From contig CAWEPZ010000013.1 of assembly GCA_963811105.1 (NCBI GenBank), forward strand, positions 96,001 to 160,000: 64,000 nt of DNA. Reading direction: 5' to 3'. The position numbers and the translations under genes are program-made. How positions within the stretch are numbered: position 1 is the stretch's first letter; every line of letters starts with the position of its first letter. This document shows positions 21,301 to 64,000 of this stretch, in pieces. The stretch comes from Candidatus Bathyarchaeota archaeon (lineage in GTDB: Archaea; Thermoproteota; Bathyarchaeia; Bathyarchaeales; Bathycorpusculaceae). The notes under the pieces were generated by a model. The model was not told the DNA's origin and searched no databases. It worked only from the letters and a program-made list of their open reading frames with translations.

Positions 21301-23319
21301 CGTCTAAATTGAAATGGTCGAGAGCAACTATTTTGAAACTGCAGTTGCCAACATTTCCGCTATCATCTGTAACATTTACGGATTTGATACCTAAGCTTGG
21401 AGATTGTGCAGTGAAAAATAGATTAGAGAAGGAACCAGTAACATTGGTAGATGGGTTTCCTGAAATAGTAACCGCAATTCCTTCAAATGTCACTATGAGG
21501 TTTGACTGAGCAGCAAATCCCTGTCCAGATATTGAAACTTGAGTACCAGTAACACCGCGTGTAGGTGTGATAGAAATTGTAGGGGTTACAACGAAATTAG
21601 TATTTACAGAATTTGCTCCGTCATTCGCTAAAACTGTTCTATTGCCTGCTGCAACAGGAGGAATAACAAAAGTTGCAGAATAACTTCCAGTGGCAGTTGC
21701 AGTCACAATAGAAGGATTGGTTATTACAGGATTTCCATCAAAATTGATAGCTATTATGGAATTATCAATAAAGTTTGAACCTGTTACAGTGACCACAGTT
21801 CCAACCGGACCAATCTGGGGAGTCATATTTATGCTGGAGGTTGTTACAGTGAAATTAGCTGAAGCATAATTGAATTTGTTATCTATAATGTTAACTGTTT
21901 TGAGTCCTGCTGTTGAACCTTGAGGGACAGTGAAGGTAGCTCCTAGATGGGATATTTCCCGTGCCATCAGCTAGTGAAGCTAAAAGGAACTTGTGCACCA
22001 TCAAATGTAGCTATGAGCCGGGAGTTGGCGGCAAAACCACCCCCAGAAACCGTAACTGGCTGACCAATTGGACCACTGCTAGGTGAAAGACTCATAGGAG
22101 CGTACTGGAGGTGTTACAACCAATTTCACTGCGTCTACTATGATAGCCCAATGGTCTGTTAGAAGGTAAAAGTGCAATTTACTGGCAAGTTGAGTGTTGG
22201 TTTTCCGTTATGAGCCTAGTTTCACCCAGACTGATCGGGGATAGAGTCGGGTCGTCCTGCGGCGCCCACGTAACTTGTGCCAGGCAAAATTTGTGCGAAA
22301 CCTGCACCTGGAGTTATTGTGGGGGTAAGCGAATCAATTTCAAATGCACCTATTACTAAATTCATTAGGAGTAATTGCGTGTTAATTGTATCTTGGGCTG
22401 GACTGGATGGGCCTGTATCGATAATTGGTCCTGAATTGTCAAATGGGGAAGCAACATTGACATCGCTGATTGCAAAAGCAATTGCCGCCCAATAATAATC
22501 GACATTAATTCAGTGCCACGTTACAGTAGAGGGTGATGTGTTATTGTTCCACCTGTGTGCATAAAGGCATAGAAGGTCTTCAATATGGCGTCCCCGCTAT
22601 ACAGACTTGGATCTGATATGGTCCGTTGAAAGATATTCCTTGTTTGCCAGTTCAGGATAGGGGTTGAGGTGGGGAGTATAGAGTATTTCCGTCATCGAAT
22701 GCGACGATCAAATAGATTAGGTCATTCGGTTTAGAAGAGTTAAGATACAACGTTACGGCGTTAGTGATCGTCAGCGAAATTGGAATTTTGTCAGCTACCT
22801 AGGAAAAGCCCCGATGAGTGATATGCCGATAAACTGATTGATCAGGGGTAAGCTGAAATGAGGTTTCCTCTCGTTGTTACAAACCAAAAGCTAAACTGAT
22901 CATAAGATGACAGCGTTTAAACAGGAGACGGAGTTGAAGTATTTAGTGCTGCTTCCGGGTTGAAGGATAAGTGATGGACGTCAATGTCATGTTACCAATC
23001 GTATTATTCGTTAAATCTTTAATCCATAAACGTACCAATTCAGTAGGAAGCGTACCATTGTTTGTGATATCGCAGAGTAAGTAAACTTATTGTTTAACAC
23101 AGCTGTTTCAGGGTTCGCAATGGATACGGTTTGGAGTTCTGTGTAGCGATCCAAATCCAGCTGTTTTGCTTGTATTGTTGTCTGTTCTAGACCGGTGTTT
23201 TGACTGAGAATAATGACAAAGCTTGCAAAAACAACCATGACTATAAGTAGGAAAAATACCATTCCGAATACTGTACCGATTCCCTTCTTGTTTCTTTGAA
23301 AATTATGGCGTAAAATCAT
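18329..23319 (-). pseudogene. Giant pilin-like adhesin (~1,660 aa if intact): class III signal peptide plus many Ig-like repeats; frameshifted at ~21945-23090
   Basis: N-terminus RNFQRNKKG|IGTVFGMVFFLLIVMVVF. Reading continues across single-base indels (ITNNGTLPTELVRLWIKD, FWFVTTRGN) into the intact 1212-aa ORF 18329-21967, which has IPT/Ig-like and GVHTF.GF.LKT repeats. Confidence 0.75.
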
Positions 23320-40910: not shown

Positions 40911-43115
40911 CTAATATTTGTATTTCGATTGTTTTTGCAGTTCTTGAAGTTTTTTGAGATTTGGTGTTTTCTTTCGTTTTACTAAATATAAACTACTTAT
41001 CACTGCGGCAGCTGCGGCGATTATGATAATGGCAATGATTATTATTAGATTGTAGTTGTTCGAGGTGTTTCCATTATTACTTGTTCCGGTCAGCGTTATG
41101 CTAAGTGCCAACGGCTGGCCGTTATAGTCGATTGTTTCGTTTTGGGCAGGATGTGCTTGGTTAATTATTCTGAAAGTGTATGGTCCGGCTGTTGCATTTT
41201 GGAAGGTTACGTAGCCTGTCGCGTTCGTTATGTCAAATAATGTTGGCACGCCTAATGGTTGGGCGGTTGATGAAACTATTGTATTGTTTAATGGTATTCC
41301 TAGGCTATCCTCAATGAGCAACGTTATTGTCCCTCCGTTGGTTTTAGGGGTTAGCGTCGGAGTTGGCGTTGGACTTGCGGTCGCCGCTGGTGTTGAGGTG
41401 GGGGTTGGGGTTGTTGTGGGAGCGGGAGTTGGCGTTTGGGTTGGAGCTGGGGCTGGTGTGACGATTACTTGTGTCGTTCCCTGGGCGCTCAAGTATCCTG
41501 TTTTTGACCCGCTTGCCGTTATAGTGCAGTTTGTGGTTATGGAGAAACTTGGAGCAGTGAAACTTGTGTTGTAATAGCCGCTTCCTAGGTCTGTAATTGT
41601 TGAGAAGATTCCGCCGTTGTTTGACGCAAATGCGACCGTTGCTCCTGCCACTGGGGCTCCATTGGCGACTACGTAGGCAGTTATTGCCGTGTTATATCCA
41701 TTATTGATGCTAACTGGGCTAGCTGTTACTGTTATTTGTAGGGCTGAGAAATCAATTAGGTAGGTTGTTATTTGAGCTTGCCCGGTGGTATAGCCTGATG
41801 CTTGCGCAGTGATTGTATTGGTTCCTGGAGCATTTGTTACAGTGAAATTTCCTGTGGCTTGTGTTTTGCCAAAAGGTATTGTTAGTGTTAGACTGGCGGC
41901 TCCAACTGTTGGTAATGATGAGAATAGATTTATGCTTACGTTTGTCTGTGGGTCTTTTGCTGGTCTTCCCTGTGAGTCTTGCAGTTGTACTTGGATTGTT
42001 TGGTATGTTGCGTTATCTGATGGTAGACTTGCTGGAGCGCAGTAAACTGCTAGTTTTGATGGGTTGAAACCGGTTGTTGTTATAGTTTGTTGATCTCTTA
42101 GGAAGTTTGTGGCTACCGCGGTTATGGTTGCGGTGCCTGCTTTGTATGTCGAATTAATCGTTGCTAACGCGTAGGTTTGTGTTTGCTTTATCGTGATTTG
42201 TGAGTCAATTTTTCCTACTGTCTGGTCGTTTGATGCTACGGTTACAATTACGTCTGATTGAGCTAATGAGGAGTAACCTGAGGCGTTCTGCAGTTCGATT
42301 GCGATTTGTTGGTAAGAGTTTTGGTCAGCGAGAACTTGGGGCGGTCCTAAGAAGATTTTGAGTTGGTTTGCATTTGATGCTATCGGTGTAGTGTTGATTG
42401 TGACTTGTTTGGATGTGTAGCCTTGTGAAACAGCTGTTATTGTTGCTGATTCTGGCTTTGGATTAACTTCTGTTTCTGCTTTTGTTGTTGTGTTAAAGTT
42501 AACTGTGGCGTAAGTGTAGCCTTCAAGGATTGTGGTATTTTGATCCACTGTTCCTACACTTGTATCTGAGCATGAAAGTGCCACTTGTACGCCTCCTTGA
42601 GGGGCTCTAGCAGGTGAACCGGTTGAATCTTGAAGTTGTACCATTATGGATGGGTATGAGTTTCCGTCGGCAGGCAATGTGGATGGAAATCCGTAAACTG
42701 CTATTGCGGAAGGGATTGGTCCAATGGTGGCTACAAATGCTTGTACGGTTGCATAGCCTGTGGCAGAGGCTGATATTGTTGTTGTTCCTGGGCTGAATGT
42801 AGAGCTAAAATTTGCTGAAGCGTAAGAAGCTCCTTTAGGTATAGTGATTGATGAATCAATTGTGCCTACGTTGGTGAGTGAGGATGATAAGCTTATTGTT
42901 GTATCTTCTACTGCTCGGGTAGGTTGTCCGTTTGGATCCTGTAATTGTACAAAAACACATTTGTATGTATTATTATCTGCAAGCACGCTTGTTGGACCGA
43001 TGTAAATATTTAGTTTGGGAGAACTACTTGCAGAGCTAATGTTCTGAGTTGACACTAAAAATATCGCTGTTACAATACAAATAATTGCTGAAATTGTCGT
43101 TATTTTTTTTGACAT
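40911..43115 (-). CDS. Cell-surface protein with tandem Ig-like (invasin-type) repeats, Pro/Thr linker and TM anchor
   Basis: Signal peptide; four repeats P..L.AD..(S/T)Y..I.VQLQD..G.P; TPAPT linker; C-terminal TM + KRKK. Confidence 0.85.
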   Translation of the reverse strand: MSKKITTISAIICIVTAIFLVSTQNISSASSSPKLNIYIGPTSVLADNNTYKCVFVQLQDPNGQPTRAVEDTTISLSSSLTNVGTIDSSITIPKGASYASANFSSTFSPGTTTISASATGYATVQAFVATIGPIPSAIAVYGFPSTLPADGNSYPSIMVQLQDSTGSPARAPQGGVQVALSCSDTSVGTVDQNTTILEGYTYATVNFNTTTKAETEVNPKPESATITAVSQGYTSKQVTINTTPIASNANQLKIFLGPPQVLADQNSYQQIAIELQNASGYSSLAQSDVIVTVASNDQTVGKIDSQITIKQTQTYALATINSTYKAGTATITAVATNFLRDQQTITTTGFNPSKLAVYCAPASLPSDNATYQTIQVQLQDSQGRPAKDPQTNVSINLFSSLPTVGAASLTLTIPFGKTQATGNFTVTNAPGTNTITAQASGYTTGQAQITTYLIDFSALQITVTASPVSINNGYNTAITAYVVANGAPVAGATVAFASNNGGIFSTITDLGSGYYNTSFTAPSFSITTNCTITASGSKTGYLSAQGTTQVIVTPAPAPTQTPTPAPTTTPTPTSTPAATASPTPTPTLTPKTNGGTITLLIEDSLGIPLNNTIVSSTAQPLGVPTLFDITNATGYVTFQNATAGPYTFRIINQAHPAQNETIDYNGQPLALSITLTGTSNNGNTSNNYNLIIIIAIIIIAAAAAVISSLYLVKRKKTPNLKKLQELQKQSKYKY

Positions 43116-49686: not shown

Positions 49687-50583
49687 TTAAGTTAAGAACC
49701 GTTTGCAGTTAGGACAAAATTGGGAATTCTGCTGAATTTCTGAGTTGCAGAACTTACATGTTTGTATTGGAGAAAACCACTTTGAAATCATTGGTTGTGT
49801 ATTAGTAGTGCCCGATTTGTGTTCATATCTTTTGCCTGCAAAGACGCTTATTTCAACCAACAATGCTAAAGCTACAAACAGGTACAGGTCTCCTTGAGGC
49901 GTTGCACCAGGCGAAATGAGCATCGCGGCGATTGCAAGTCCGGCGTATATGTATTTTCTTTGTTTGGTAATCGCTTTTGTATGTAATACACCAAACTTTA
50001 CAAGAAGCACGAAGAAAGATGGAATTGTAAAAAGCACTCCGCTTATTATTATGGTGAAAAAAATTATGCCGTAAAAATCCATAAGTGGGAACAACTGCAT
50101 GGCGTTGACTGCCGAGTAAAAAGGAATGAACCCCTGAATAAAAGAAGGAGCAAGAACATAAAATCCAAAAATGGAACCAACGATAAAAAGAACTGTAACT
50201 ACTCCAGTGAAGGGAAAAATTGCTTTTTTCTCATGTGGATAAAGCGCTGGATCAATGAACCTATAAGCTTCATATGCAAAAACAGGCAAAGTTATGCCGA
50301 TTGCGAAGACAAGGGCAGCGTATACATAAAGAGTAATGGGGTCAGACATAGAGCCAGCAAATAGCTGAGACCCTTGAGGCAAAAACATGTTGCCGATATC
50401 TACCAGAAGAACCGACATAAGTGGTTTATAATTGCTAGTCATCGCAAAGAAGTCACTGTTACCGGGAAGAATAAGCATGACAAGCAAAGCAACCAAGAAC
50501 GTGCCTAAAACCACCTTCATACGTTTTATAAATTCGGTAAGGTGACCCCAGAAATCTGTAAAGAAATTTTGTGTTTCAGGCAT
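49687..50583 (-). CDS. tatC: Twin-arginine translocase subunit TatC with C-terminal zinc ribbon
   Basis: FWGHLTEF..R, YEAYRFIDPALYPHEK, six TM helices; downstream of tatA; C-terminal CKFC...CPNC. Confidence 0.92.
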   Translation of the reverse strand: MPETQNFFTDFWGHLTEFIKRMKVVLGTFLVALLVMLILPGNSDFFAMTSNYKPLMSVLLVDIGNMFLPQGSQLFAGSMSDPITLYVYAALVFAIGITLPVFAYEAYRFIDPALYPHEKKAIFPFTGVVTVLFIVGSIFGFYVLAPSFIQGFIPFYSAVNAMQLFPLMDFYGIIFFTIIISGVLFTIPSFFVLLVKFGVLHTKAITKQRKYIYAGLAIAAMLISPGATPQGDLYLFVALALLVEISVFAGKRYEHKSGTTNTQPMISKWFSPIQTCKFCNSEIQQNSQFCPNCKRFLT

Positions 50584-50759
50584 GTTAAAGACCCTCCAAT
50601 ATTTCTTTTTCAACCGCAGCTGTATTACGAGCTAGATAGAAGATGGAAGGAGGAGAAAAAATATCGACCAAAGAGTGATTCTTCAACTATAACTCCCCCT
50701 CATATTTTTTTAGCGAATCCGATACCTTTTCGTGAAGAAAAAAACAAATTTAGAAAAGA

Positions 50760-51277: not shown

Positions 51278-54200
51278 TTAACTATTCAGTACTGCAATAA
51301 TTGTTGCGCCTCTGGCTCTTGGACTAGGATCTCTGATGCTAACTGTAGGAGCTGAAGTATAACCGGTGCCCGGATTCGTAAGCACTATGCCAAGGATTAC
51401 GCCATTTGAGACTCTTGCAGTAGCCGTAGCGCCTGATCCGCCTCCTCCCGTAATGATTACAGCAGGAGTAGTGTAACCACTACCACCACTCACAACATTG
51501 AAACCTGTGATTGTAGAAGTTGCAAAAACTGTAATTGTTGCATTGTTGGACTGGACAGATGCGGTATTGTTGTCGGTAACTTTTAGGTAGATTGTAAAGT
51601 TTCCTGGCGTTGCTGGTGTGAATGTCAAAGTGCTTGCGTTAGCATTTGGTATTTGGCTCCCGTTAAGGTACCATTGATAAGAATAAGGTTGAGCTCCGCC
51701 TGAAATGGTCGAGTTAAACGTCTGGGGCATCCCAACAGTCATGTTACTGAAGACTGGACTAATAGAAACGTTTAGTTGAAGGTAAACTGTCACGTCTGTC
51801 ACAATATTTGATTGAGCTTTGACGTTGAGCGTGTCAGTTATGTTGAGGTAGACTTTGTAAATTCCAGCAACTGTTGGTGTGAAGGTCCAGTTCTGGCTAT
51901 TTGCTCCTGAAACAGCTGTGTCGTTCAGACACCATTGGAAAGTGTATGGTTTCGTGCCTCCTAAAACAGAGGAGCTAAACGTCTGGTTCTGTCCCACGTA
52001 CATTTTCACGTGTGTTGGAGAAATGTTAACAGTAATGCCTGTTTGAACATTTGCAGTTGCATTGTTAGACTTTACAGAGACTGCGCTGTGGTCAGTGACG
52101 TTTAGATAAATTTTATAGGTTCCAACTGTTGCTGGGGTAAACGTCCAACTTGCGGCGGTTGCCCCTGAAATGGCGGTGCTATTCAAGTACCATTGATACG
52201 AGTAAGGTGCGGTGCCACCTGTAACGTTGGAGACAAAAGTCTGTGACGCTCCAGTGGTCATGTTAACGCTGATCGGAATTATGGTAATTGTCGGCTGAGA
52301 ATTCACTGTTATGTCGGTTACTATGTTGGATTGAACTTTAGAGTTTAGGGCATCGGTTACATTAAGGTAGACTTTGTAGTGACCAGTTGTTGCTGGTGTG
52401 AAGTTCCAGGTGGTGGCGGTGGCTCCTGTCACAGCAGTGTCATTCTGATACCATTGATAAGCGTAGGGGATGAGTCCACCTGTTGTGGTAGAGGTGAATT
52501 GTTGTGTTGTTCCAAATGTCATGTTTACTGAAGTAGGGTTGATTATTACTGATGGTTGTGAATAGACGTAGATTGCTGCTGGGTTGGATTGGGTTTTGTT
52601 GTTGAGGTTGTCGGTTACGTTCAGGTAGATGTTGTAGGTTCCGGTTGAGTTTGCTTTGTATGTTAAGGTTGGATTTGTGGCGCCTGTTATCTTGGTGCCA
52701 TTGGTGTAGTACCATTGGAAAGTGTAGGGTGAGAGGCCTCCTGTTATGGTGGAGTTAAACAGTTGAGTGCCTCCCACCGTCATATTCACCGAGGCTGGGT
52801 TGATGGTTGCGACTGGCTGTGAATAGACGTTGATAATAGCCGTATTGGATTGGGATCTGTAGTTTAGGCTGTCGGTTACGTTGAGATAGATGCTGTAGGT
52901 TCCTGTGAAGTTTGCTTTGTATACCAAGGTCGGAGTTGTCGCTCCTGATATTGCATTTCCGTTCGCATAGTACCACTGATAAGTGTATGGGGCGAGGCCG
53001 CCAGTAACTGCAGAGTTGAACTGCTTCGATCCTCCTGCAGTTATGTTTGCGGATGTTGGGCTAATAGAAACCGACGGTTGACTGTAAACTATGATATTGC
53101 TAACGACATTGGAGTTTGCTTGATTGTTGAGGCTATCAGTAACTCTAACGTAAATGTTGTAATGTCCACTTTGAGTCGGAGTGAAATTCCAGTTAGCGCC
53201 TGTAGCTCCTGACACTGCAGTGCCATTCCTATACCACCGATATGTATAAGGTGGTCTGCCTCCTCCAGCAATGGAAGCAAACTCTTGCGATTGACCCACA
53301 TCAATGCTTGCTGCGGTCGGGCTAATGGAAGGGTGCAGAGGCGTCATGTAAATGCCAATCGCCCATAGCCAATCATATCCTGCACCATCAACAGCAGCTA
53401 CCCAACCGTTTCCAGACCACCAAGGATTTACAGTATGCATTGCTTGTGCATTCCAACCGCTAGTGCCAGTTGCATGTACGAGAGGGCTTCCATCAACCTC
53501 GTGCTCGGCATAAGTTGTCGTGGTTAGTGTATCAACTTGGAACGCCCTTACACCTTGTCCATACAATTCCTGGGTCAACCGAATAATGCGGTCATTATCA
53601 AATACGATTGCTCGTCCTGCACCACGAACCTTCATTGAATCTGAGTTTATTGGGCTCATAGGATGCATATGCCATGCTGAAGGGTTCTCGAGATTGTAGG
53701 AATAGTAAAGATATCCTAAGTCGCTTTCGCTGCTTGTGAACATCCACCACATATTATTGTACCTGAACACGGATGAATCCACAGGATTGTAGCTCTGTCT
53801 TGAGAGTATACTGGAAACGTACGTCCAACTGTAGGGAAAATCGGTTGCCTTGTAGAGTCTTACTTCACTTTGCGAGTAAGTTTCAGGAATTAAATAATAT
53901 GTTCCATTCCACTTAAAGATGCAAGGATAAGCTAGACTGAAGGGTTCTGAAAGCACAATTTGCTGGTAAGACCAATCAAATCCATCATTACTGGTCGCTA
54001 AACCAATTTCTGAATAGTCCGTGCTGCTCCAGTGAACTTCAAAGAACATGTACCATAAACCGTTCTCATGATAGATGAAAGGGTCTGCAACATAATCAGC
54101 TGCCCGATCAGTTACGCTTGCCCCTGTTAGAACTGGTTCAACCGTTCCCGGAACCAAGGTGAAGAAATCATGTTTAACTTTGGACCAGTCTGGTACTAGC

Positions 54201-55480
54201 AAATCGGGTTGGGACTGACTATAAACTACAAAGTCATCGACTGTATTAGATTGTGCGGTTTGTCCATCGGCATCAGAAACGCTGGCTTGTAAACTGTAGC
54301 TTCCTGGCGCGGTGGGTGTAAAGGTTAAAGTTGGGCCATTTTGACCTTGCAAGAGGGCTCCGTTCAAGTACCAAGTGTAAGAATAGGGTACGGTTCCTCC
54401 CAGAGTTGTTGCAGTAAAGACTTGGGATTGATTAAGGTACATGCGAATGATTGGCGGATTTATTGTTATGGAGGGTTGAGAAAAAAGTTCAGTATCAAAT
54501 TCCTCGTTATAGTCTAAGCCCAAAATTGGGTTATTCCATATGTTTCTTCCGCCAATAACGTACAGATTGCTACCGATTACTGCGCACCCAACACCGTCCC
54601 TCGGATAAACTCCAGAAGGAAGCTGCGTCCAAACTTCCGTGCTTGGATTATAACTATACATGTAGTCGTAAAAGCTACTATCGTGTTGCCCTTGACCATA
54701 TCCATAGTAAATTATGCCGTTAATTACCGGATTGTCGCGTAGTGTTCCGTAAGCTCCGTATGGAGATGGGTTAATAGTTATCCAGTCATCGAAGGCAGGT
54801 CTAAAGTAGGCACATGTATTAGTTGCGTCACTGATCGATAAATCGTAACCTCCGAGTAGGTAAATTCTGTCTTCGCCATTTACGTTAACATACGCGCATT
54901 CTGCCCAATCTTTATTGTATGGAGCACTGGCCAACTGGGTGTAATCGCCAGTTTCGGGATTATACGAGTAGGTTGAAGACCCGTAGAAAAGGTAAATTAG
55001 TGAACCAGAGGTTACCGCTTCTAAACCTTGGTTAAAAACATTATTTGGGAGATCCTGCTTGGTAACCCAACTATCCGACGCAAAATTGTACGCTTCTACC
55101 GCGGAGCTGGCATATCCCTGATAGTCTCCACCAAATACATACGCTTCATCGTTATACAAGGCTGCCGCGTCTCCCCAACGAGGATAACTCATAGATGTTT
55201 TCTGAGTCCAAAAGTCTGCTACAGGATCATAGGAATAGACCTCGGCTTGCCCAAGGCTCCAAGAATCATGATAACCCCCGAAAACATAGATTAAACCATC
55301 GTATGCTACGGCTGGCAGATCTGCCCTTATCTCAGGCAACGCCGCTTTTGTGATCGATCCAGTTGGAAGTGCAGATACGTCGCCTACTACTGAGGCAATA
55401 TTTACGAAAAATGACAAAGTAAGAAACATCAAAAACACTGTTAGCGGTTTCTTAACTCTGTACCTTACCATGAATCTCAT
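51278..55480 (-). CDS. Large secreted protein: Kelch propeller, Ig, GH43/GINT1-like five-bladed propeller, about seven PKD/Ig repeats, conserved C-terminal domain
   Basis: Kelch IYVFGG...YDP...W repeats; ADPF...WYMFFE...LAYP...YYLIPET; GG..PY.Y.WY.N repeats; ends RDPSPRARGA with no TM anchor. Confidence 0.85.
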   Translation of the reverse strand: MRFMVRYRVKKPLTVFLMFLTLSFFVNIASVVGDVSALPTGSITKAALPEIRADLPAVAYDGLIYVFGGYHDSWSLGQAEVYSYDPVADFWTQKTSMSYPRWGDAAALYNDEAYVFGGDYQGYASSAVEAYNFASDSWVTKQDLPNNVFNQGLEAVTSGSLIYLFYGSSTYSYNPETGDYTQLASAPYNKDWAECAYVNVNGEDRIYLLGGYDLSISDATNTCAYFRPAFDDWITINPSPYGAYGTLRDNPVINGIIYYGYGQGQHDSSFYDYMYSYNPSTEVWTQLPSGVYPRDGVGCAVIGSNLYVIGGRNIWNNPILGLDYNEEFDTELFSQPSITINPPIIRMYLNQSQVFTATTLGGTVPYSYTWYLNGALLQGQNGPTLTFTPTAPGSYSLQASVSDADGQTAQSNTVDDFVVYSQSQPDLLVPDWSKVKHDFFTLVPGTVEPVLTGASVTDRAADYVADPFIYHENGLWYMFFEVHWSSTDYSEIGLATSNDGFDWSYQQIVLSEPFSLAYPCIFKWNGTYYLIPETYSQSEVRLYKATDFPYSWTYVSSILSRQSYNPVDSSVFRYNNMWWMFTSSESDLGYLYYSYNLENPSAWHMHPMSPINSDSMKVRGAGRAIVFDNDRIIRLTQELYGQGVRAFQVDTLTTTTYAEHEVDGSPLVHATGTSGWNAQAMHTVNPWWSGNGWVAAVDGAGYDWLWAIGIYMTPLHPSISPTAASIDVGQSQEFASIAGGGRPPYTYRWYRNGTAVSGATGANWNFTPTQSGHYNIYVRVTDSLNNQANSNVVSNIIVYSQPSVSISPTSANITAGGSKQFNSAVTGGLAPYTYQWYYANGNAISGATTPTLVYKANFTGTYSIYLNVTDSLNYRSQSNTAIINVYSQPVATINPASVNMTVGGTQLFNSTITGGLSPYTFQWYYTNGTKITGATNPTLTYKANSTGTYNIYLNVTDNLNNKTQSNPAAIYVYSQPSVIINPTSVNMTFGTTQQFTSTTTGGLIPYAYQWYQNDTAVTGATATTWNFTPATTGHYKVYLNVTDALNSKVQSNIVTDITVNSQPTITIIPISVNMTTGASQTFVSNVTGGTAPYSYQWYLNSTAISGATAASWTFTPATVGTYKIYLNVTDHSAVSVKSNNATANVQTGITVNISPTHVKMYVGQNQTFSSSVLGGTKPYTFQWCLNDTAVSGANSQNWTFTPTVAGIYKVYLNITDTLNVKAQSNIVTDVTVYLQLNVSISPVFSNMTVGMPQTFNSTISGGAQPYSYQWYLNGSQIPNANASTLTFTPATPGNFTIYLKVTDNNTASVQSNNATITVFATSTITGFNVVSGGSGYTTPAVIITGGGGSGATATARVSNGVILGIVLTNPGTGYTSAPTVSIRDPSPRARGATIIAVLNS

Positions 55481-56128
55481 CTCTCTTTACGATCAGCCCA
55501 TCAGGGGCTAACTGAATTTAAATTATGCTACGAAACGAGGAATATTCCATGGACAGAAATCAAAGGTAGCTAAAACAGAGTTGTTCGATGCGGAAAGAGT
55601 TGCCATAAAAGATACATCCTATCCACAACATGTTCGGACTTCTAAGTCGCATCGCAAATTGAGCCTTGTTTCCATTTTCGGATAGTGCTTGACACAGTTC
55701 AAGTTTCTTCGTTAAGCGTCACTGGCAGAGTTTTAAGCACATTGAACAAATGGAAGTGTAATTCACTAAAATAATTGACAGGATTCCACAATTAACTTCA
55801 GATTAACATGACTAATAGCCCCGTCCAAAGGACTAATGGTTCTCGTAAGTTGAATTATCAAGTTGCAAGTACTATGTTGAATTTTTGGTTTGTTATATCT
55901 ACAAATAAATTGGTAATATTGCGAAATAGAAACATAACTTTATATTCTGAAGAACAGTCAAATTTTCAGGAAAAACACGAAAGAGATAGCTAAGGTTTCG
56001 AGGGCTTAGACTTCCGAGCTATATGATTTCGAGAACCATATTGAAAGCCTGTTGTAAAAGCACCTCAGCGAATTAACCCATCAATCACTCATGTTAAAAT
56101 TTATTAAAAATTGGAAACGGAATGAGAA

Positions 56129-56965
56129 ATGAGCGGGAAAAATCCAGACTTATTTTCAAAACATCCTCTCGTTTCAATAGTTATTCCTTGTTTTAACTAT
56201 GCGCATTTTCTTGCAGAGTGTATTCAAAGCGCCTTGAATCAAAGCTACCCTAATCTTGAAGTAATAGTAATTGACGATGATAGCACAGATAACACAGGTG
56301 ACGTCGCCAAGCAATTTTCAAAGGTGAAGTACCTTAGAATAAAGCATCAAGGAAATGCTACGCCTGCGCACGCTCTTAATGTCGGTATTCAGGTTAGTAC
56401 TGGAGATTTTATTATCTTTTTAGGCGCAGATGACAAGCTTGACCAATTATACGTATCTAAATGCCTTGAATTGTTCAATTGCAAAACATCTGGAAATAAG
56501 AATAGAGTTGGTTTCATCTGGACAGGTTACCAATCTTTTGGAGATAAAAAAATAATAGATCTGCCTTATGTCGAAAAACTGACTAAATGGAATTATGATC
56601 ATTGTGGAGGGCAGATAGGTTCGATGTTAGTGCCAAAGCCCGTATACTTACAGGTCGGAGGCTACGATGAATCACTGCCGCAATATGAAGATTTGGACTG
56701 GGCAATTAGGGCTTGCAAGAAGGGGTATGTCGGCTTCAGTGTAAAAGAGCCTTTGCACAATTATCGTTTCCACGGATTTACAGTAAACAGCAATCCGCAC
56801 GAAAAGGCAAACCGTGAGGCTCTGTTCCGCAAGCATCCTTCTTATAGAATTCTGAGAGCAACTCATAGAAACCTGAACAAAGGTAAAAACTACGTGATAT
56901 ATTTTCCAGATTACGCGACAGCATTATACAAAAAAATAAGGCGAAGAAAAAAACGGACTAGTTAA
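56129..56965 (+). CDS. Glycosyltransferase family 2
   Basis: VSIVIPCFN, VIDDDSTD, ALNVG, GADD, VGGYDE, EDLDW. Confidence 0.92.
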   Translation: MSGKNPDLFSKHPLVSIVIPCFNYAHFLAECIQSALNQSYPNLEVIVIDDDSTDNTGDVAKQFSKVKYLRIKHQGNATPAHALNVGIQVSTGDFIIFLGADDKLDQLYVSKCLELFNCKTSGNKNRVGFIWTGYQSFGDKKIIDLPYVEKLTKWNYDHCGGQIGSMLVPKPVYLQVGGYDESLPQYEDLDWAIRACKKGYVGFSVKEPLHNYRFHGFTVNSNPHEKANREALFRKHPSYRILRATHRNLNKGKNYVIYFPDYATALYKKIRRRKKRTS

Positions 56966-57164
56966 ATTTCCCTCGGGTTATTAATTCGGACAAGGGAAAG
57001 GCGCTGTCAGCGAATAACCAAATACTTAAGCTTTGTTTTTTGGGGCAAAGTATCTGCTTGATCGTATTATCATTGCTATCTTGTCTTGCAGGGGCACAAA
57101 TAGTTGAAAGTGAAAATACAGCGTTAGCCATTTTTAACTGCAGGAACTTTTCCAACCTTCGTTA

Positions 57165-57190
57165 AGGGTTCAAATCCCACCCCTGCACAA
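57165..57190 (+). other. tRNA 3'-end (T-arm/acceptor) fragment, possible att-site scar
   Basis: GGGTTCAAATCCCACCCCTGCAC resembles an archaeal tRNA-Leu 3' end; no 5' half is present. Confidence 0.45.
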
Positions 57191-57361
57191 ATGTGAGCAA
57201 AATGGTTAAGCTGATTTGTTTCTGAAGTTTTAATATGTTGGCGATCGCGTTTTTTTGAATATTTCAACCATTTTTATAATCCAACACAAAAAAGAAAAGG
57301 GTTTCGAAGGCCTTCAATTCTTGCCAAATAGATGCTTTAATCCAACCCAAAAAGCGTGGTA

Positions 57362-57505
57362 TTATTTCGATTCTTCTCCTGTTCCATGGCACCTTGGGCA
57401 AGTTTGCTCAAACACATTTGGCCATCTGGGCATTTTCCCTTTTCCTCTACACATAGGACAAGATTGGTGAGTATGTGTGCAAATATCATATCTCCCAGTG
57501 CTCAT
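57362..57505 (-). CDS. 47-aa DnaJ-type zinc-finger microprotein
   Basis: MSTGRYDICTHTHQSCPMCRGKGKMPRWPNVFEQTCPRCHGTGEESK*, containing two CxxCxGxG motifs. Confidence 0.7.
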   Translation of the reverse strand: MSTGRYDICTHTHQSCPMCRGKGKMPRWPNVFEQTCPRCHGTGEESK

Positions 57506-58024
57506 GAAATTAACCTGAAGAAAAAAATTAACTCTTTGTTAAATATTAATCTGCTTGCGATATTTCCAATATTCCATTTTAGGAAATATGGACTCGAAGT
57601 TTTTCCCTTTCCCTAAATGGACTTGCAATTAGCTTAATTATAAGTTTGTTGAAAAGTGGCGAGTGTCAACAAGCAGGTTACTCATAAAAAGTTAAACTAC
57701 TTGTTCAACAAAAAAAAGTCAAAAAAAAAAAACATCAAGAAACCAAAAGGTTTCACTATCGGCTATTTGACTTCTACTTTTGAAGTTTCTAAAACTGTAA
57801 ACTTCCATACAAAGACACCTACTCTGCTACCATTTGGGCACTTCACCCACAATAAACTCTTCAACAAATCTAACTCAGACTCCTTCGGCAACAGCGTTTC
57901 CAGCGCCGGTGCTTGCAGTTTTGGCCCGCTTGAGTAGATCAGATTGCTAAATTGTCCAACAATAAAAAAGGGAAGGTCTAGTCCAAATTCTGGGTGATCC
58001 GCGTGATGCAAAACGACAATTTGA

Positions 58025-59338
58025 TTATGGGATCACTGAAATGACAATTGTTGCCCATGCGCCTTTGGCTCTTGGACTAGGGTCCCTGAAAACAACGTTA
58101 GGTGCAGAAGTATATCCGTCACCGGGATTTGTTAACACCACGAAGAGAATAACGCCATTTGAAACCCGTGCCGTAGCAGTTGCGCCTGTCCCTTCGCCGC
58201 CCAATAGAAGGATAACAGGGGTGGTGTAGCCGCTTCCACCTGAAATTACTGTTACGCCTGTTAAAGCAAAGTGCAACGGAGGCCAGGTTCTCATCAGCGG
58301 ATAACGGTCAGAGTTGTTTGTGTCAAGAATGTAAGGGCTATCCCCTATCCCATCATGGTTCGAGTCAGTTCCATTGTAATTGTTCCAGTGGTTTCCGCCA
58401 GAAGGATAACCATCATCCCAAACATTCACATATCCGACCATTACTAAGGCCTGTACTGTGTTATCGATGAAGTTGTTATGGTAAACATGGTTGCCTGAAG
58501 AGGAATTGAGGTTGATGCCAAAATTGTTATTCATTATGTTATTTTCACTAATGTTGCTGCTGTTAAATTGTCTCAGGAAAAGGCCAACTCCATTATTATT
58601 TGCTACCGTGTTCCTAACTATGGTATTATTGGAGCCGTCCTCGATACTTACGCCACCTTTATTGTTTGTTATTTTATTTTCAGAAATTCTATTGTTTAGA
58701 CTTCTCCACTGGAGCCTGACACCCCAAACGTTATTGTTTGTTATGTTGTTCTTGGAAATGGTGCCGTTCCAAAAATCATCGAGAAAGAGACCGTAATCAT
58801 TATTTGTTATACTGTTCCCAAAGATGCTGTTCTGGTTTGTATAGTCAGAATTGACACCTAATACATTATTTACTATGTTGTTTCCAGAAATGGTGTTGTT
58901 ATAAGAATTCCACCAGAGTCTGATCCCATAAGTATTGTTTGTGATGTTGTTTTCCAATATAGTGTTATTATGAGCATCAGGATAAGGTTGGATAAGTATC
59001 CCATCGGCGAATCCTCCGATTGCCAAGTTCTTAACTGTAACATTGCTTCTCCCTGACAAGTCTACTCCGGTTCCGTTTCCTACACCCTTAAGATCATGCC
59101 CTGCACCATTTACTACGATGTTGTTGCGCTGTACCACGATTGAGCCGTTAACGTCATCTACAAATGTGTAGGAGACGTTTCCAACATTCAAAATCGGCGC
59201 AGATGAAGGATCAATCGTCCCATTCGCCCTGATGTAAATCGTTCCTGTGTACGCTTTTGCTAGCTCTAAATTTAACATAGGAGAAATGAAACAAAACAAA
59301 AGCAAAGCTGTTACAATCAGAGAAACATTTTTTTTCAT
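58025..59338 (-). CDS. Secreted NosD/CASH-type parallel beta-helix protein with conserved C-terminal domain
   Basis: Signal peptide, IYIRANG.IDP, Asn-rich beta-helix repeats, WDDGYPSGGNHW, DGIGD.PY...DRYPL, then the RDPSPRAKGA domain. Confidence 0.88.
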   Translation of the reverse strand: MKKNVSLIVTALLLFCFISPMLNLELAKAYTGTIYIRANGTIDPSSAPILNVGNVSYTFVDDVNGSIVVQRNNIVVNGAGHDLKGVGNGTGVDLSGRSNVTVKNLAIGGFADGILIQPYPDAHNNTILENNITNNTYGIRLWWNSYNNTISGNNIVNNVLGVNSDYTNQNSIFGNSITNNDYGLFLDDFWNGTISKNNITNNNVWGVRLQWRSLNNRISENKITNNKGGVSIEDGSNNTIVRNTVANNNGVGLFLRQFNSSNISENNIMNNNFGINLNSSSGNHVYHNNFIDNTVQALVMVGYVNVWDDGYPSGGNHWNNYNGTDSNHDGIGDSPYILDTNNSDRYPLMRTWPPLHFALTGVTVISGGSGYTTPVILLLGGEGTGATATARVSNGVILFVVLTNPGDGYTSAPNVVFRDPSPRAKGAWATIVISVIP

Positions 59339-59584
59339 TCCTTATTTCCCTTTTCCCTGCAAAATACATTATACGCTAATTTGCTTATAAAATTTGGCAA
59401 GAAACATGTCTTCAGAGAGTTCACTTGATGATGCACTTTCATGATTATACTCTTGTTTGACAATAAAGGGAGATGATAACCGGCAGGAGCATTCGATGAT
59501 TCGTTTCTTAGGAAGGTTTTGGTTTAGGAGTTGTCAACGCCTGACGTTGCTCGACAAATTTCCTCTTGGAAGAACTTTATTATC

Positions 59585-60570
59585 TCAACCTTCGCTAAAA
59601 TTAGGGCGATTTTCGATTTCTGCTTCTTCACTTTTTCTTTTCCCAAATAGTTTTTGCCATTGCAGAGTAAGAACGAAAACGAGAATAACTACAATCATAA
59701 TACCTAAGAATGCAATAACGTAGGTGAAAAGCATGTTGCTTCTCGCCTGAAGGTATATCACAGTGCTCTGCAAAAAGAAGCGTCCATCATAGGTAGCACT
59801 CGAGTTAGAACCAATAGTAAATTTCAGGCTTATCGCAGCGGCTTCTCGTGAAACTGCGTTATCCGGAACTAGGGCAGAGATCTCCATACCATCTGGGGAC
59901 ATCATAACTGCACTAATATCACGTCACGGCCCGACCCAACTGTCAAACTGATTGTTTTTTATTAGAATTTGGGCACCGTTTAAGTGATTTGGGTCTCCCC
60001 TGAAATCTTGGTCGGATCTTACTACGGCAATGAGTCTTGTCCCTGCCAGATTATAGCTGCCATCGATATTTTGTTCAGTTTCATTTAAGAACACATTTTT
60101 CAAATCTAAGAATAGTTCGGCGTAATCATCAGCATGATTTAAACTTGCATTTAGTATCCAGGTTCCATTGCTATACTCCAAATTCGCGGCTCCTGATCCT
60201 TGTTGTTTCCAACCAGCAGTGGGGGGAATATTTTCTGAAATTGACTTTTTGCCTTCCGAAAAAAACGTTCCTATGAGGAGAGCGGAACCTAAGAGTGAAC
60301 CAACAAGTATGGCTAGGATAAATGCTTTTGCGATTCCCCCCTTTATCGTTGGCAGTCGCTGGAACAGTGAGGGCTTGAACCATGCTACAAAACCAATGAT
60401 ACCCAGAATAACACCGCCTACGATAAGCACTAACTGGACATTGAATTCAATCTCATGTAATATGTTTGGAAGGGTACACGACCAATAATTCCAACGAAAC
60501 AGAAAAAAATTCCACTGGAAAATGAAATTGCCGGAACAGTTCGTCCATTTGGAATAGCTTGAACACCCAT
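59585..60570 (-). pseudogene. Membrane protein with extracellular beta-sandwich (CBM-like) domain; frameshift plus in-frame TGA
   Basis: ATG 60570 frame shifts into ORF 59924-60430, which stops at TGA and continues in frame into ORF 59585-59905 ending in a TM helix. Confidence 0.6.
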
Positions 60571-60915
60571 TCCTTTGCTTCCTCTCCTATATAGTATATT
60601 ATACGATTAAAGTTATAAATTAGCTGGATTTTAGACTTGTTGGGTTCATCTTTAAAAAAATGTTTTTGTCGAAACTTGCGATTTCAAAGCTTGAGATGTT
60701 TTTGCAATATTTGAATCTATTTTTCTGAGTAACTCAACGTTAAGCCAGTATACCATTCTATCTAGCGCCTATACTTTAATTTTAGGAAAAACAATATGGC
60801 TCCCAGAGTGAGCAAAAATTCGACTTTGTTAAGATTCAACTATGAAACACTTGGTTGCTTTCGATTTAGAAAGAGAGAAAGATTAAAATTTAGTTTTCTT
60901 CCTTCCTTATTCGCT

Positions 60916-63258
60916 TCAGCTTGTTAGGACGGGTTCAGAGGGTGTTGTGCCGTTTATCCACGTCCACCCTGCATAGATATTTGTATTCAGGTTTAGCGAA
61001 TTCTGCCAGAGCGTATTGCCATCTAAACCCTCTACTACAAAGTAGAGCGTGTTGCCTACTACAGTAGCGGCTGGGCTCATGCCCGTTGAACCTGCTGAAG
61101 GCCCGCTCCATCCTTGCCATGCGCCGTTGAATTGGTTGATGTATATGTTATTATCTGATCCTCTAACTACCAAAGAGTAGCCGGTTCCATTCTGCCATAA
61201 CGCTAGAGTTGGTGATGAGGTAAAGGACCCAGGTATCCATGTCCATCCTGAGAATGTGTTTGTGTCTAGGTTCATTGTACTCTGCCATAACGTGTAATTG
61301 TCGTTTACATTTGTGCTGCTAAAGCCACGTACTACCACGATGAGTTGGTTGCCTTGCATGACGGCTGTGATCTTGTCGCAGGTTAACTCGACGGAGAAGC
61401 CTTGCCAATCATTCCAAGTTTGGGTCTGAAGGTTGTAAACCCTATAGTAGATGGAGTTGTCCGTCGCACGTACAATCAAAGTGAGTGCTGTACCATTCGA
61501 TGTAAGTGTCGGCGAAGAGGGTGAAGAGCCGCTAAGGATTGTCCATCCTGAAAAGCTATTGTCCGTTAGATTCACTGAGCTGAACCATAAGCTTGAGCCG
61601 TCCGTTCCTCGGACCACGAAATATAGTTGGTCGGAAGCACGAACTGCTGCTGGACTGTCCATTGTAGATCCGCTTGGCAAACCATTCAAGTTGTTCCATG
61701 ACTTTGTGGAGAAGTTGTATGTGCGATAATAGATGACGTTGTCACCTCCGCGAACTGCAAGATAACTTGTATCTTGTGGGTTGATCGAGAAAGTTACACT
61801 GACTGTGGTTGGTCCGGTAATTGTTAGTCCTAAATTTGTGACTGCGCCTTCATCGATAGTTCCGTTTACTACGACGTCAGCGACGTTGTAGCCTGGATCG
61901 GGAGTAAACACAAAGTTCTCAACTGAACCGGAAGGGACAGCGCCGGAGGCAATGTTCGATTGGCCATTGGGACTCACGTTTACCGTTAAATCAACTGTTT
62001 TGATTGCGAAGGTTACGTTAACGGTGGTTGGTCCGGTAATTGTTAGTCCTAAATTTGTGACTGCGCCTTCATCGATAGTTCCGTTAACTACGACGTCAGC
62101 GACGTAGTAGCCTGGATCGGGAGTAAACACAAAGTTCTCAACTGAACCAAGAACGACAGTACTATTGCCAATATTTGATTGACCGTGTGGACCCACATAA
62201 ACCGTCAAATTTGCGCCTAGCTTGAATACTTGGACTAAGCTATTGCCTGGATCTGCTACGTAGATGTTTTGGCTTGAGTCAACAGCTATCGCACCGCCCC
62301 AAGGTGTACTCTGAGCGGTGAAGTAGAATTTGCCGTTACCGCCGTTATTGCCAGCTCCATAGCTGCCGAACGTGGTAATGAAATTGCCGTTCTGATCGAA
62401 TACTTGTACTCGTTCGTTGTTGGTGTCTGTAACGTAAACGTTTCCGCTGCTGTCGATAGCTATCCCATAATTGTAAACGAATTGGCCATTGCCTGAACCG
62501 AAGCTTCCGAAGGTTTTAAGGTAGACTCCGCTTGGGCTGAAAATCTCCACTCTGCTATTCGCATCATCTGTGACATACACATATCCTGTTGAGTTAATAG
62601 CTACTCCTGCGGGATGAGTGAATTTGCCTGGATTAGTGCCAGAGCCTCCAAACCATTTAACGAAGGTGCCATTTGCTTGGAATATGTCAACTCGATTGTT
62701 GTATGTATTTGCTATAAAGACGTATCCTGTTGCGTTAACTGCGATTCCAGTTGGATTATTGAACGAGCCGTTTGTAGAACCAAATTCGCCAAATTTGAAT
62801 AAGAAGTTGCCGCTGGCATCGTATACCATGACACGATGGTTGGGATAGTAGTCGAAGACATATACAGTTCCATTGTTTGGGTTAATACCTATACCGTAAG
62901 GATTTCCAAAATCGTAGTCGCCGTGAGTTCCAGTGTCTTGTTGGCCCCATTTATTCAGATAATTGCCACTTGTATCGAATACTTGAATGCGATAGTTATT
63001 GGTGTCTACCACGTAGAGGTATCCGTTGTATGGGCTTAGGGCAATTCCATATGGATTGTGAAGATACCCGTTGCCGTTACCAATTGGGGTGCCCCACTGT
63101 TTAAAAAACGCGTAGGTTGTAGCTTGCGCAAGTGCTGTAAACGTTGCAGAAAGCAGAAGCAGCACAAAGGCCAAAGCAATGATGCTTTTTCCTTTATGAT
63201 TCCCGCTGTTGTTTTTCCGCAGATTATTCGTTTTTACTAATTTCCTTAATATGTTCAT
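60916..63258 (-). CDS. Secreted NHL-repeat propeller, two duplicated Ig/B-repeats and C-terminal lectin-like (PLL/fucose-lectin-type) propeller
   Basis: FG..G...G.F..P.GIA....YV.D..N.RVQVF repeats; LVVRG.DN.IY...W..W repeats; no TM anchor. Confidence 0.85.
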   Translation of the reverse strand: MNILRKLVKTNNLRKNNSGNHKGKSIIALAFVLLLLSATFTALAQATTYAFFKQWGTPIGNGNGYLHNPYGIALSPYNGYLYVVDTNNYRIQVFDTSGNYLNKWGQQDTGTHGDYDFGNPYGIGINPNNGTVYVFDYYPNHRVMVYDASGNFLFKFGEFGSTNGSFNNPTGIAVNATGYVFIANTYNNRVDIFQANGTFVKWFGGSGTNPGKFTHPAGVAINSTGYVYVTDDANSRVEIFSPSGVYLKTFGSFGSGNGQFVYNYGIAIDSSGNVYVTDTNNERVQVFDQNGNFITTFGSYGAGNNGGNGKFYFTAQSTPWGGAIAVDSSQNIYVADPGNSLVQVFKLGANLTVYVGPHGQSNIGNSTVVLGSVENFVFTPDPGYYVADVVVNGTIDEGAVTNLGLTITGPTTVNVTFAIKTVDLTVNVSPNGQSNIASGAVPSGSVENFVFTPDPGYNVADVVVNGTIDEGAVTNLGLTITGPTTVSVTFSINPQDTSYLAVRGGDNVIYYRTYNFSTKSWNNLNGLPSGSTMDSPAAVRASDQLYFVVRGTDGSSLWFSSVNLTDNSFSGWTILSGSSPSSPTLTSNGTALTLIVRATDNSIYYRVYNLQTQTWNDWQGFSVELTCDKITAVMQGNQLIVVVRGFSSTNVNDNYTLWQSTMNLDTNTFSGWTWIPGSFTSSPTLALWQNGTGYSLVVRGSDNNIYINQFNGAWQGWSGPSAGSTGMSPAATVVGNTLYFVVEGLDGNTLWQNSLNLNTNIYAGWTWINGTTPSEPVLTS
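61805..62148. repeat. Near-perfect 125-bp direct repeat, period 219 bp, inside the NHL protein gene
   Basis: 61805-61929 and 62024-62148 differ at about 2 positions; encode VENFVFTPDPGY.VADVVVNGTIDEGAVTNLGLTITGPT. Confidence 0.9.
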
Positions 63259-63624
63259 TTTCTTTATCTCATATTTTTCAAGTTTATCTAAAACATTTTT
63301 AGAAAAAATCTTTCCAGGAAGAATTTAAGCCTGTGTGGGTACTTGGGAGGTAATTGAGGTGCTGATTAAACTTTTCGATTGCCTGACTAAGGGGGGCGTC
63401 TTTTAACGTGTCAAACACGCTTACCATTTCTAACACTCTCAGTTCATGTAAGAAACAAGCATTATATAAAATCTACTAATGACCAATGCGTGTTTGGTTT
63501 CCTAGGTGAGGCTGAAGCAATTTTAACTCCTTGATTCTTGTTTGGGTCTTTGGGTCTAACAGAGAGAGTAAGAGAGTGAGTGAGTGTCCTTCTCAACTCC
63601 ATGTCTAACAAGTTCATCAACCGT

Positions 63625-63770
63625 TGCAATCAGAACATTTGCCGTCAATTGGACCTCCATAGACTACACCGTTCACAACATCAGCAGATGACCAGACACC
63701 TTGGCAAGTGGTGTAGTTCCAGAGTTTGGCGCCGTTGACAGCATTCAAAGTATAAACATTGCTTCAGGCG
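63625..63770 (-). pseudogene. PQQ/BamB-type propeller blade remnant
   Basis: NVYTLNAVNGAKLWNYTTCQGVWSSADVVNGVVYGGPIDGK with no intact gene around it. Confidence 0.5.
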
Positions 63771-63847
63771 CTGATGAAATAGACGATAGGCTTTGTCTGC
63801 TGAAAGAATGTTGTAGCTTATTCTTAGGCAGCGCTTTTTGGAGCCAT

Positions 63848-64000
63848 TTATGGACTGGCATAATTGATTGCTGCTACTGCGCCTTTAGCTCTTGGACTGG
63901 GATCCCTAAAGATTACTGCAGGTGAAGATGTATAGCCACTGCCTGCATTAGTGAGCACTACCGAATATGACACCTTGAGACACGCGTGCTGTTGCGTGGC
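63848..64000 (-). CDS. 3' end of a gene running off the window, encoding a third copy of the conserved C-terminal domain
   Basis: ATARVSQGVIFG/VLTNAGSGYTSSPAVIFRDPSPRAKGAVAAINYASP*, with an indel near 63960. Confidence 0.75.
   Translation of the reverse strand, partial: ATQQHACLKVSYSVVLTNAGSGYTSSPAVIFRDPSPRAKGAVAAINYASP

Follow-up and report, generated by a model that had tools for sequence, protein, structure and literature searches.

A predicted beta-barrel with an RDPSPRA loop on secreted Bathyarchaeota proteins: subtype of a large phage and cellular family, and its putative binding role

Introduction

Shared terminal elements on diverse secreted cargo are known from several systems, including PGF-CTERM/archaeosortase, the C-terminal domain of the type IX secretion system (T9SS), dockerins, and SLH domains. 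An element of this kind was noticed in the DNA analyzed here, a stretch of 64,000 nucleotides from a Candidatus Bathyarchaeota archaeon (assembly GCA_963811105.1, genome G000 below; contig CAWEPZ010000013.1, or C13, positions 96001-160000; hereafter the window). Two intact genes and one broken gene in the window end in a module of ~75 residues that carries the motif RDPSPRA close to its end. A preliminary description of this DNA proposed that the module was a new archaeal sorting or anchoring system, acting as a docking domain or as a processing signal at DPSPR. On balance, we lean toward a different reading, in which the “RDPSPRA tail” belongs, as a subtype restricted to Bathyarchaeota, to a large family of predicted barrels and acts as a mobile, non-catalytic, putative binding module on secreted proteins.

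The module differs from the known sorting systems in form. The PGF-CTERM/archaeosortase signal combines a motif, a transmembrane helix, and a basic cluster and is strictly C-terminal, whereas the tail of the module is a predicted beta-strand of 8-11 residues and its position is variable. The module is close in size to the T9SS C-terminal domain. However, neither Pfam nor NCBIfam gives a match between it and the T9SS C-terminal domain, dockerin, or SLH. Carbohydrate-binding modules (CBM) and Ig-like, PKD, and FN3 domains offer a second comparison. Like the module, they are promiscuous, extracellular, and non-catalytic, they stand at protein ends or between the Pro/Thr linkers of glycoside hydrolases, and they are shared between phage particles and cellular proteins. 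The module is nevertheless a member of none of these sequence families according to Pfam and NCBIfam.

Two further systems lend themselves to comparison. The GSGY double-repeat family, seen in PHROGs 701, 708, 460, 4406, and 19630, in cyanophage neck, baseplate, and structural proteins, and in large FtsP/CotA-like oxidases, has in common with the module the predicted fold over 75-80 columns at 30-50% identity, two GxGY..P loops, and a GGGGxGA loop. The subtype described here differs in that its second glycine loop is RDPSPRAxG and in that it occurs in single copies that are often terminal, where the family often forms long tandem arrays. The nearest solved fold is domain I of the phage T4 tail sheath protein gp18 (residues 98-188; PDB 3fo8, 3foa), which is likewise a six-stranded barrel of the same size, exposed, non-catalytic, and inserted as the module is. 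It differs by an extra helix, and the likeness is structural, with no significant sequence similarity.

Results and discussion

Module genes in the window

The features on which the analysis rests are as follows (window coordinates unless a contig is named).

51278..55480, minus strand: Kelch/GINT1_N/PKD gene, a 1400-residue open reading frame (ORF) with the module at its C-terminus
51281..51517, minus strand: module copy 1, the last 79 residues of the 1400-residue protein, a predicted six-strand beta-barrel of the RDPSPRA type (translation, profile, AlphaFold)
58025..59338, minus strand: NosD/right-handed beta-helix gene, a 437-residue ORF with a signal-like N-terminus, NosD/beta-helix, and then the module
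58028..58273, minus strand: module copy 2, the last 82 residues of the 437-residue protein (translation, profile)
63848..64000, minus strand: module copy 3, second half only (VVLTNAGSGYTSSPAVIFRDPSPRAKGAVAAINYASP); a broken gene that extends beyond the window ends here
C13:159848-163343 (L005:1848-5343): the broken copy-3 gene, with matches to Peptidase_S8 (E ~2e-10) and PQQ_2 (E 2.4e-26)

Both intact ORFs end in ...SGGSGYTTP..GG.G.GATATARVSNGVI..VLTNPG.GYTSAP.V..RDPSPRA(R/K)GA followed by 8-11 residues. The two copies are 66% identical in alignment, and a profile built from five copies of the genome finds copy 1 with a domain E-value of 1.1e-38 and copy 2 with 1.8e-39; values of this order (1e-38 to 2e-39) exclude a chance likeness. 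By Pfam, the cargo is unrelated. The 1400-residue protein runs from a signal-like N-terminus through a Kelch propeller, a GINT1_N-like domain, and about nine PKD/Ig repeats to the module, while the other protein is a NosD/beta-helix. Both N-termini look signal-like, as judged by eye. Two proteins elsewhere in the window (25455-28106 and 40911-43115) finish with a hydrophobic segment and a Lys/Arg tail, which is missing from the module proteins. In these respects, the preliminary description of one terminal module on two complete secreted-type proteins with unrelated cargo, signal peptides, and no membrane-anchoring tail was accurate.

Its third gene stood only in part. The second half of the module is in frame there, but the first half lies in two other frames, and copy 3 does not provide an intact third example. 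Beyond the window end, the gene is split into more than 10 frames, with pieces of Peptidase_S8 and of a PQQ propeller. It is probably a pseudogene or a badly assembled gene. Because the long genes adjoining it are intact, a pseudogene is more likely than general assembly noise.

Predicted fold and internal repeat

AlphaFold gave a confident fold. With 29 sequences, all five models were confident (predicted local distance difference test, pLDDT, 92.9-96.9, with 96.9 for copy 1) and showed six strands. With eight sequences, one of the five models was confident (pLDDT 94.3, the others 52-60), and it showed the same six strands. On these models, the module is a self-contained domain of ~75 residues, a six-stranded beta-barrel, in which the sixth strand (residues 69-78) is the “tail” that follows RDPSPRA.

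The barrel is an internal duplication of a unit made of a strand, a GxGY(T/S)xxP loop, a second strand, and a glycine-rich loop. When the two halves of the module are aligned, ...P.V.I-RDPSPRA.G-A... falls on ...P.V.I-TGGG--GSG-A..., and this score was matched by shuffled second halves in 0 to 23 of 500 trials, depending on which of seven copies was used. In terms of sequence, RDPSPRA is thus the counterpart of the GGGGSG loop in the first half-repeat. The subtype can be described as one in which the second such loop (GGGGSG) is replaced by RDPSPRAxG and the following 8-11 residues form, in the predicted structure, the closing strand. Where copies are internal, the chain runs on past the sixth strand, and RDPSPRA therefore looks like a loop variant inside a domain and not like a cleavage or recognition tail. 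The idea of a processing signal at DPSPR finds no support here, since the motif is a loop aligned with a glycine loop and the tail is a strand of the predicted barrel.

Comparison with solved structures was less direct. Searching the PDB by sequence with the module profile returned noise only (E>=0.29), two repeat-rich family members gave no hits apart from a weak filamin match (E 0.003), and Foldseek against the PDB found no match at E<=0.001. A structural aligner independent of Foldseek placed domain I of the T4 tail sheath gp18 at the top for both models submitted, with Z 6.3 and 6.2, 74 residues aligned at a root-mean-square deviation (rmsd) of 2.9-3.1 A, and 18% identity. A Klebsiella phage sheath followed at Z 5.6, and the next unrelated rows stood at Z 3.4-3.5; by the aligner's own caveat, a Z below 8 may mean a common arrangement only. 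By eye, PGSNY and TGKNY of gp18 domain I stand where the module has GGSGY and PGTGY. Within residues 90-195 of T4 gene 18 (L022:13804-14121), PGSNY, TGKNY, and GSNW...SSSSSG also recall by eye the GSGY...GGGGSG units, a likeness that is not statistically significant.

What has been described of gp18 domain I is relevant to how such a barrel may be used. In the passages that deal with it in a review (PMC3004832), domain I is a protruding six-stranded barrel with a helix, makes no contacts between sheath subunits, and binds the baseplate and the retracted long tail fibers. The same passages report that G106S, S175F, and A178V, located in two loops of the domain, block fiber retraction (PMC3004832). 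The mutated letters fit positions 107, 176, and 179 when the first Met is counted, and the glycine is that of PGSNY. From the aligned ranges, we infer that the mutated loops correspond to the GSGY and RDPSPRA loops of the module.

The parent family in phage particles and secreted proteins

The preliminary description recognized no family in the module, and curated models agree. Pfam gave no family for the module at E<=10 and, with whole proteins, nothing over the module; with six repeat-rich family members, it again gave nothing over the module, one member showing GH64 and dockerin only. NCBIfam had no matches for four module copies or for five family members. Phage families present a different picture. 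Among the PHROGs families listed for copy 1, 13 of 22 reach E<=0.001, and all of these are structural or without an assigned function; a virion structural protein (3.8e-13) comes first, followed by a baseplate wedge subunit (5.3e-12) and the head closure protein Hc2 (6.1e-12). The other three copies tested gave similar results.

Larger collections show how far the family extends. Of 1.84 billion representative proteins searched with the profile, 16,322 matched at E<=0.001; 6,405 passed E<=1e-10, and 892 passed E<=1e-30. Each of the best 150 has 7-41 matched stretches, in proteins of up to ~7,000 residues. In a word-indexed search, 3,908 of 6,495 candidates reached E<=0.001; many of these proteins are named as FtsP/CotA-like multicopper oxidases, and large oxidases with module-type repeats are common in metagenomes. 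Other matched proteins carry Phage-Gp8, Phage_stabilise, autotransporter-associated repeats, a T9SS tail, FN3, or GH64, and the source names include Planctomycetota, Dehalococcoidia, Akkermansiaceae, Methanoperedens, and Chlorohelix.

Viral collections add to this. Fifteen GenBank phage records match and are labeled as neck, tail, or structural proteins; in IMG/VR, at least 498 of 613 candidate stretches were confirmed. The BFVD viral models gave 32 matches at E<=0.001, and the listed rows with TMq 0.83-0.90 have rmsd 1.0-2.8 A over 75-83 columns, a comparison of predicted models on both sides. In the ESM Atlas, the nearest clusters are all “hypothetical protein,” are partly viral, and have no Pfam family in common. 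The preliminary description also mentioned GSGYT..P units from structural proteins of phages, and PHROGs, BFVD, and the GenBank phage records confirm this. A literature search with sequence-motif strings gave no description of the domain among the papers listed, and the passages on VrlC in two papers describe a baseplate protein and not the repeat of the module (PMC4621102, PMC7029224). By its sequence profile, the module is a member of a very large family of phage proteins (neck, baseplate, fiber, and other virion proteins) and of bacterial and archaeal secreted proteins that is without a curated name.

Copies across the genome and their position in proteins

To place the copies of the window among the others in the genome, the five-copy profile was run against 34,926 six-frame ORFs of at least 40 residues, which revealed about 10 copies in G000. 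The preliminary description would have taken copies nearly always at the C-terminus as support and internal positions as refutation, and this genome gives the second outcome. Where a full RDPSPRA-type copy is taken as one with >=55 profile positions matched at E<1e-8 (a filter that excludes a split copy at C13:163642), G000 has eight full copies, of which four are C-terminal and four are N-terminal or internal, with the chain continuing for 59 to 1,024 residues beyond the module. When the loci of relatives are included, 13 of 23 full copies end 3-10 residues before the stop codon and 10 of 23 are not C-terminal; the relatives' loci were selected by likeness to a C-terminal copy, which biases the C-terminal ratio.

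The cargo outside the two intact genes is equally varied. A further C-terminal copy stands on a 584-residue protein on contig C1 for which Pfam finds NPCBM_assoc only and which, by eye, has what we take to be a serine-peptidase-like motif. A 709-residue secreted-type protein (C13:163646-165772), with a weak GH127-like match under the cut-off (E 0.0014) as its only one, has had its C-terminal module cut off by a one-base frameshift; the single base lies between ...TTPHIFL and IGGEGTGATA... (L005:5642-7772, C13:163642-165772). A multicopper oxidase of 1281 residues with a signal of the twin-arginine translocation (Tat) type and a PF07731 match (E 3.8e-07) has an RDPSPRA-type copy at residues 184-257 and, at residues 664-726, a further one that is generic and lacks RDPSPRA. 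In a 201-residue protein on contig C10, the module directly follows the signal peptide and one more beta domain comes after it. A 951-residue frame with a C-terminal GH5 cellulase (PF00150, E 6.6e-27) has its copy between Pro/Thr-rich linkers, and a copy on contig C11 is also flanked by Pro/Thr linkers. The observation of a shared module on diverse secreted cargo therefore holds, with the module as a folded domain; its use as the hallmark of a sorting system does not.

Some of these genes lie close together. Four module genes fall within ~18 kb on C13, and two are adjacent on C1. The latter pair (C1:93358-99225, L001:3358-9225) consists of a C-terminal-module protein directly upstream of a Tat-signal multicopper oxidase, and the same pair recurs in 5 of 12 Bathyarchaeota loci (L007, L010, L012, L013, and L016). 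The oxidase of the recurring pair has ~1270 residues; its RDPSPRA-type copy lies toward the N-terminus, and a generic one is inserted in mid-chain.

Outside the module, DPSPR occurs once in the genome, as ...GDPSPRARGF... in a 1315-residue frame without the module (C1:39058-43002, plus strand). This protein is presumably an RNA polymerase large subunit, and we take the pentapeptide there as a chance match.

Distribution among genomes and age of the copies

The closest relatives of the module are 69-92% identical to it, are all of the RDPSPRA type, and come from 12 loci in metagenome-assembled genomes of Candidatus Bathyarchaeota; the remaining three loci that were kept come from bacteria and have the generic type. 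In the 12 loci, nine full copies are C-terminal, on PKD/Ig, FN3, and NPCBM_assoc proteins and a 1913-residue GINT1_N/PKD protein, and six copies are N-terminal in multicopper oxidases or oxidase fragments. Apart from a few metagenome proteins, the RDPSPRA loop was seen in Bathyarchaeota genomes only. An RDPSPRA-like loop is present in none of the 80 viral loci kept, and a viral origin of the subtype was rejected on this count.

Within the genus, the distribution is patchy. At a match threshold of E<=1e-5, 18 of its 120 genomes have the module, with G000 counted among them (10 of 73 when high-quality genomes are counted), and it occurs in none of 16 genomes from other families of the order. With its ten copies, G000 has the most among the holders. 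The exosortase/archaeosortase family PF09721, the only family profiled as a possible co-occurring sorting enzyme, is present in 107 of the 120 genomes and consequently does not track the module.

The copies also differ in age. Most paralogue pairs have 55-66% DNA identity and 56-70% protein identity. Two pairs are recent, namely the copies of the Kelch/PKD protein and the 584-residue C1 protein (90% DNA, 84% protein) and those of C11 and the GH5 enzyme (87% DNA, 84% protein). Recent local duplication as the sole source of the copies was rejected, as only these two pairs are recent. From the paralogue identities, it follows that the module has long been kept as protein and is still being moved around. 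Judged by sequence, most copies are old.

What the module may do

On the reading that we favor, the module has been moved onto about 10 secreted proteins of this genome, where it stands at the C-terminus, directly behind the signal peptide, or with Pro/Thr linkers on both sides. There it would bind a glycan or a protein, either of the cell envelope or of a polymeric substrate, as CBM or Ig-like modules do, and once bound would keep anchor-less enzymes near the cell or the substrate. A sorting enzyme would neither recognize nor cut it. By analogy, four considerations point to a putative binding role: the terminal or Pro/Thr-linker placement on enzymes without anchors, the abundance of the module on phage parts that meet cell surfaces, the conservation of the subtype-specific loop, and the behavior of the nearest solved fold. 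Carbohydrate binding in particular is hinted at solely by the placement between Pro/Thr linkers in the GH5 enzyme. The docking domain that the preliminary description offered as an alternative remains, as a putative role, the best functional guess.

Several observations weigh against this reading. The link to gp18 domain I is structural only, its Z of ~6 lies below the safe level, hhalign gives it a probability of 0.6%, and the pairwise scores of the module against domain I are equalled by 4 to 275 of 300 shuffles. There is a real excess of exactly C-terminal copies (13 of 23), although the relatives' loci were chosen by likeness to a C-terminal copy. A dedicated attachment role would likewise be consistent with the lack, in the module proteins, of the transmembrane-plus-basic tail that neighboring surface proteins have. 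Giant proteins with long tandem arrays would suit a passive spacer as well as a binding unit.

The last point leads to the strongest competing explanation, which we regard as unlikely but to be taken seriously. The barrel would be a passive spacer, stalk, or stabilizing unit like Ig-like repeats, with no specific ligand, and would spread through its robust extracellular folding. Arrays of 7-41 stretches are what such a unit would be expected to form; the module also adjoins spacer-type domains (PKD, FN3, and NPCBM_assoc) and matches no ligand-binding family in Pfam or NCBIfam. However, a single copy at a protein end or between the Pro/Thr linkers of the GH5 enzyme makes a poor spacer and occupies the usual place of a binding module. 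The RDPSPRA loop is also kept across paralogues that are otherwise 56-70% identical, and the nearest solved fold, as far as the cited passages describe it, binds other proteins through its loops.

The favored binding reading can be taken a step further, although we consider this extension doubtful. The RDPSPRA barrel may be a docking module with which some soil Bathyarchaeota hold anchor-less hydrolase-type, beta-helix, and Tat-exported oxidase proteins on the envelope or on each other, with the RDPSPRA and GSGY loops as the contact surface. Going by the passages on T4, the sheath domain I loops that hold the retracted tail fibers may be the surface equivalent to these two loops.

It is improbable, in our assessment, that the module serves assembly, with copies on different enzymes binding each other or an adaptor such as the 201-residue C10 protein to form a cellulosome-like complex. 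Hydrolase-type and oxidase-type cargo do share the module, its genes cluster on C13 and C1, and the pair of a C-terminal-module protein and a multicopper oxidase recurs in the Bathyarchaeota loci mentioned above. Yet tandem arrays within one chain need no contacts between chains, and T4 sheath domain I makes none between subunits in the passages available. It is very improbable that the module is a C-terminal signal for sorting or processing, one that a dedicated enzyme would cut or transfer at DPSPR, as an archaeal counterpart of PGF-CTERM/archaeosortase or the T9SS domain: the many exactly C-terminal copies on signal-peptide proteins without transmembrane anchors and the want of a curated family match would suit it, but half of the full G000 copies are N-terminal or internal, DPSPRA is a loop in a confidently predicted barrel, the module is patchy in a genus where PF09721 is widespread and is missing from the sister families sampled, and the parent family is mostly phage and bacterial, with some bacterial members carrying sorting signals of their own (e.g., PF18962).

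As a sorting system, the module would be new biology, and the evidence does not support this. Its interest lies elsewhere. The family comprises more than 16,000 representative clusters from phages, bacteria, and archaea. Neither Pfam nor NCBIfam has a model for it, sequence searches reveal no solved member, and a name for the family would provide an annotation for many phage structural and surface proteins now called “hypothetical.” In an uncultured group of soil archaea, the module also marks a set of secreted enzymes without membrane anchors and therefore provides a practical handle on how cells keep exoenzymes nearby.

Other genes in the window

Three further genes on the minus strand were noted. 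A gene for the TatC translocase (49687-50613; PF00902, E 2e-34) is separated by ~660 bases from the Kelch/PKD module gene, on the side of the latter's 3' end. At 60916-63258, a 780-residue signal-peptide protein has NHL repeats and further repeated C-terminal domains, with neither the module nor a transmembrane tail. Finally, a 1212-residue ORF at 18329-21967, with no Pfam match at E<=1e-4, adjoins a type IV pilus/T2SSE-type ATPase gene at 16289-17920.

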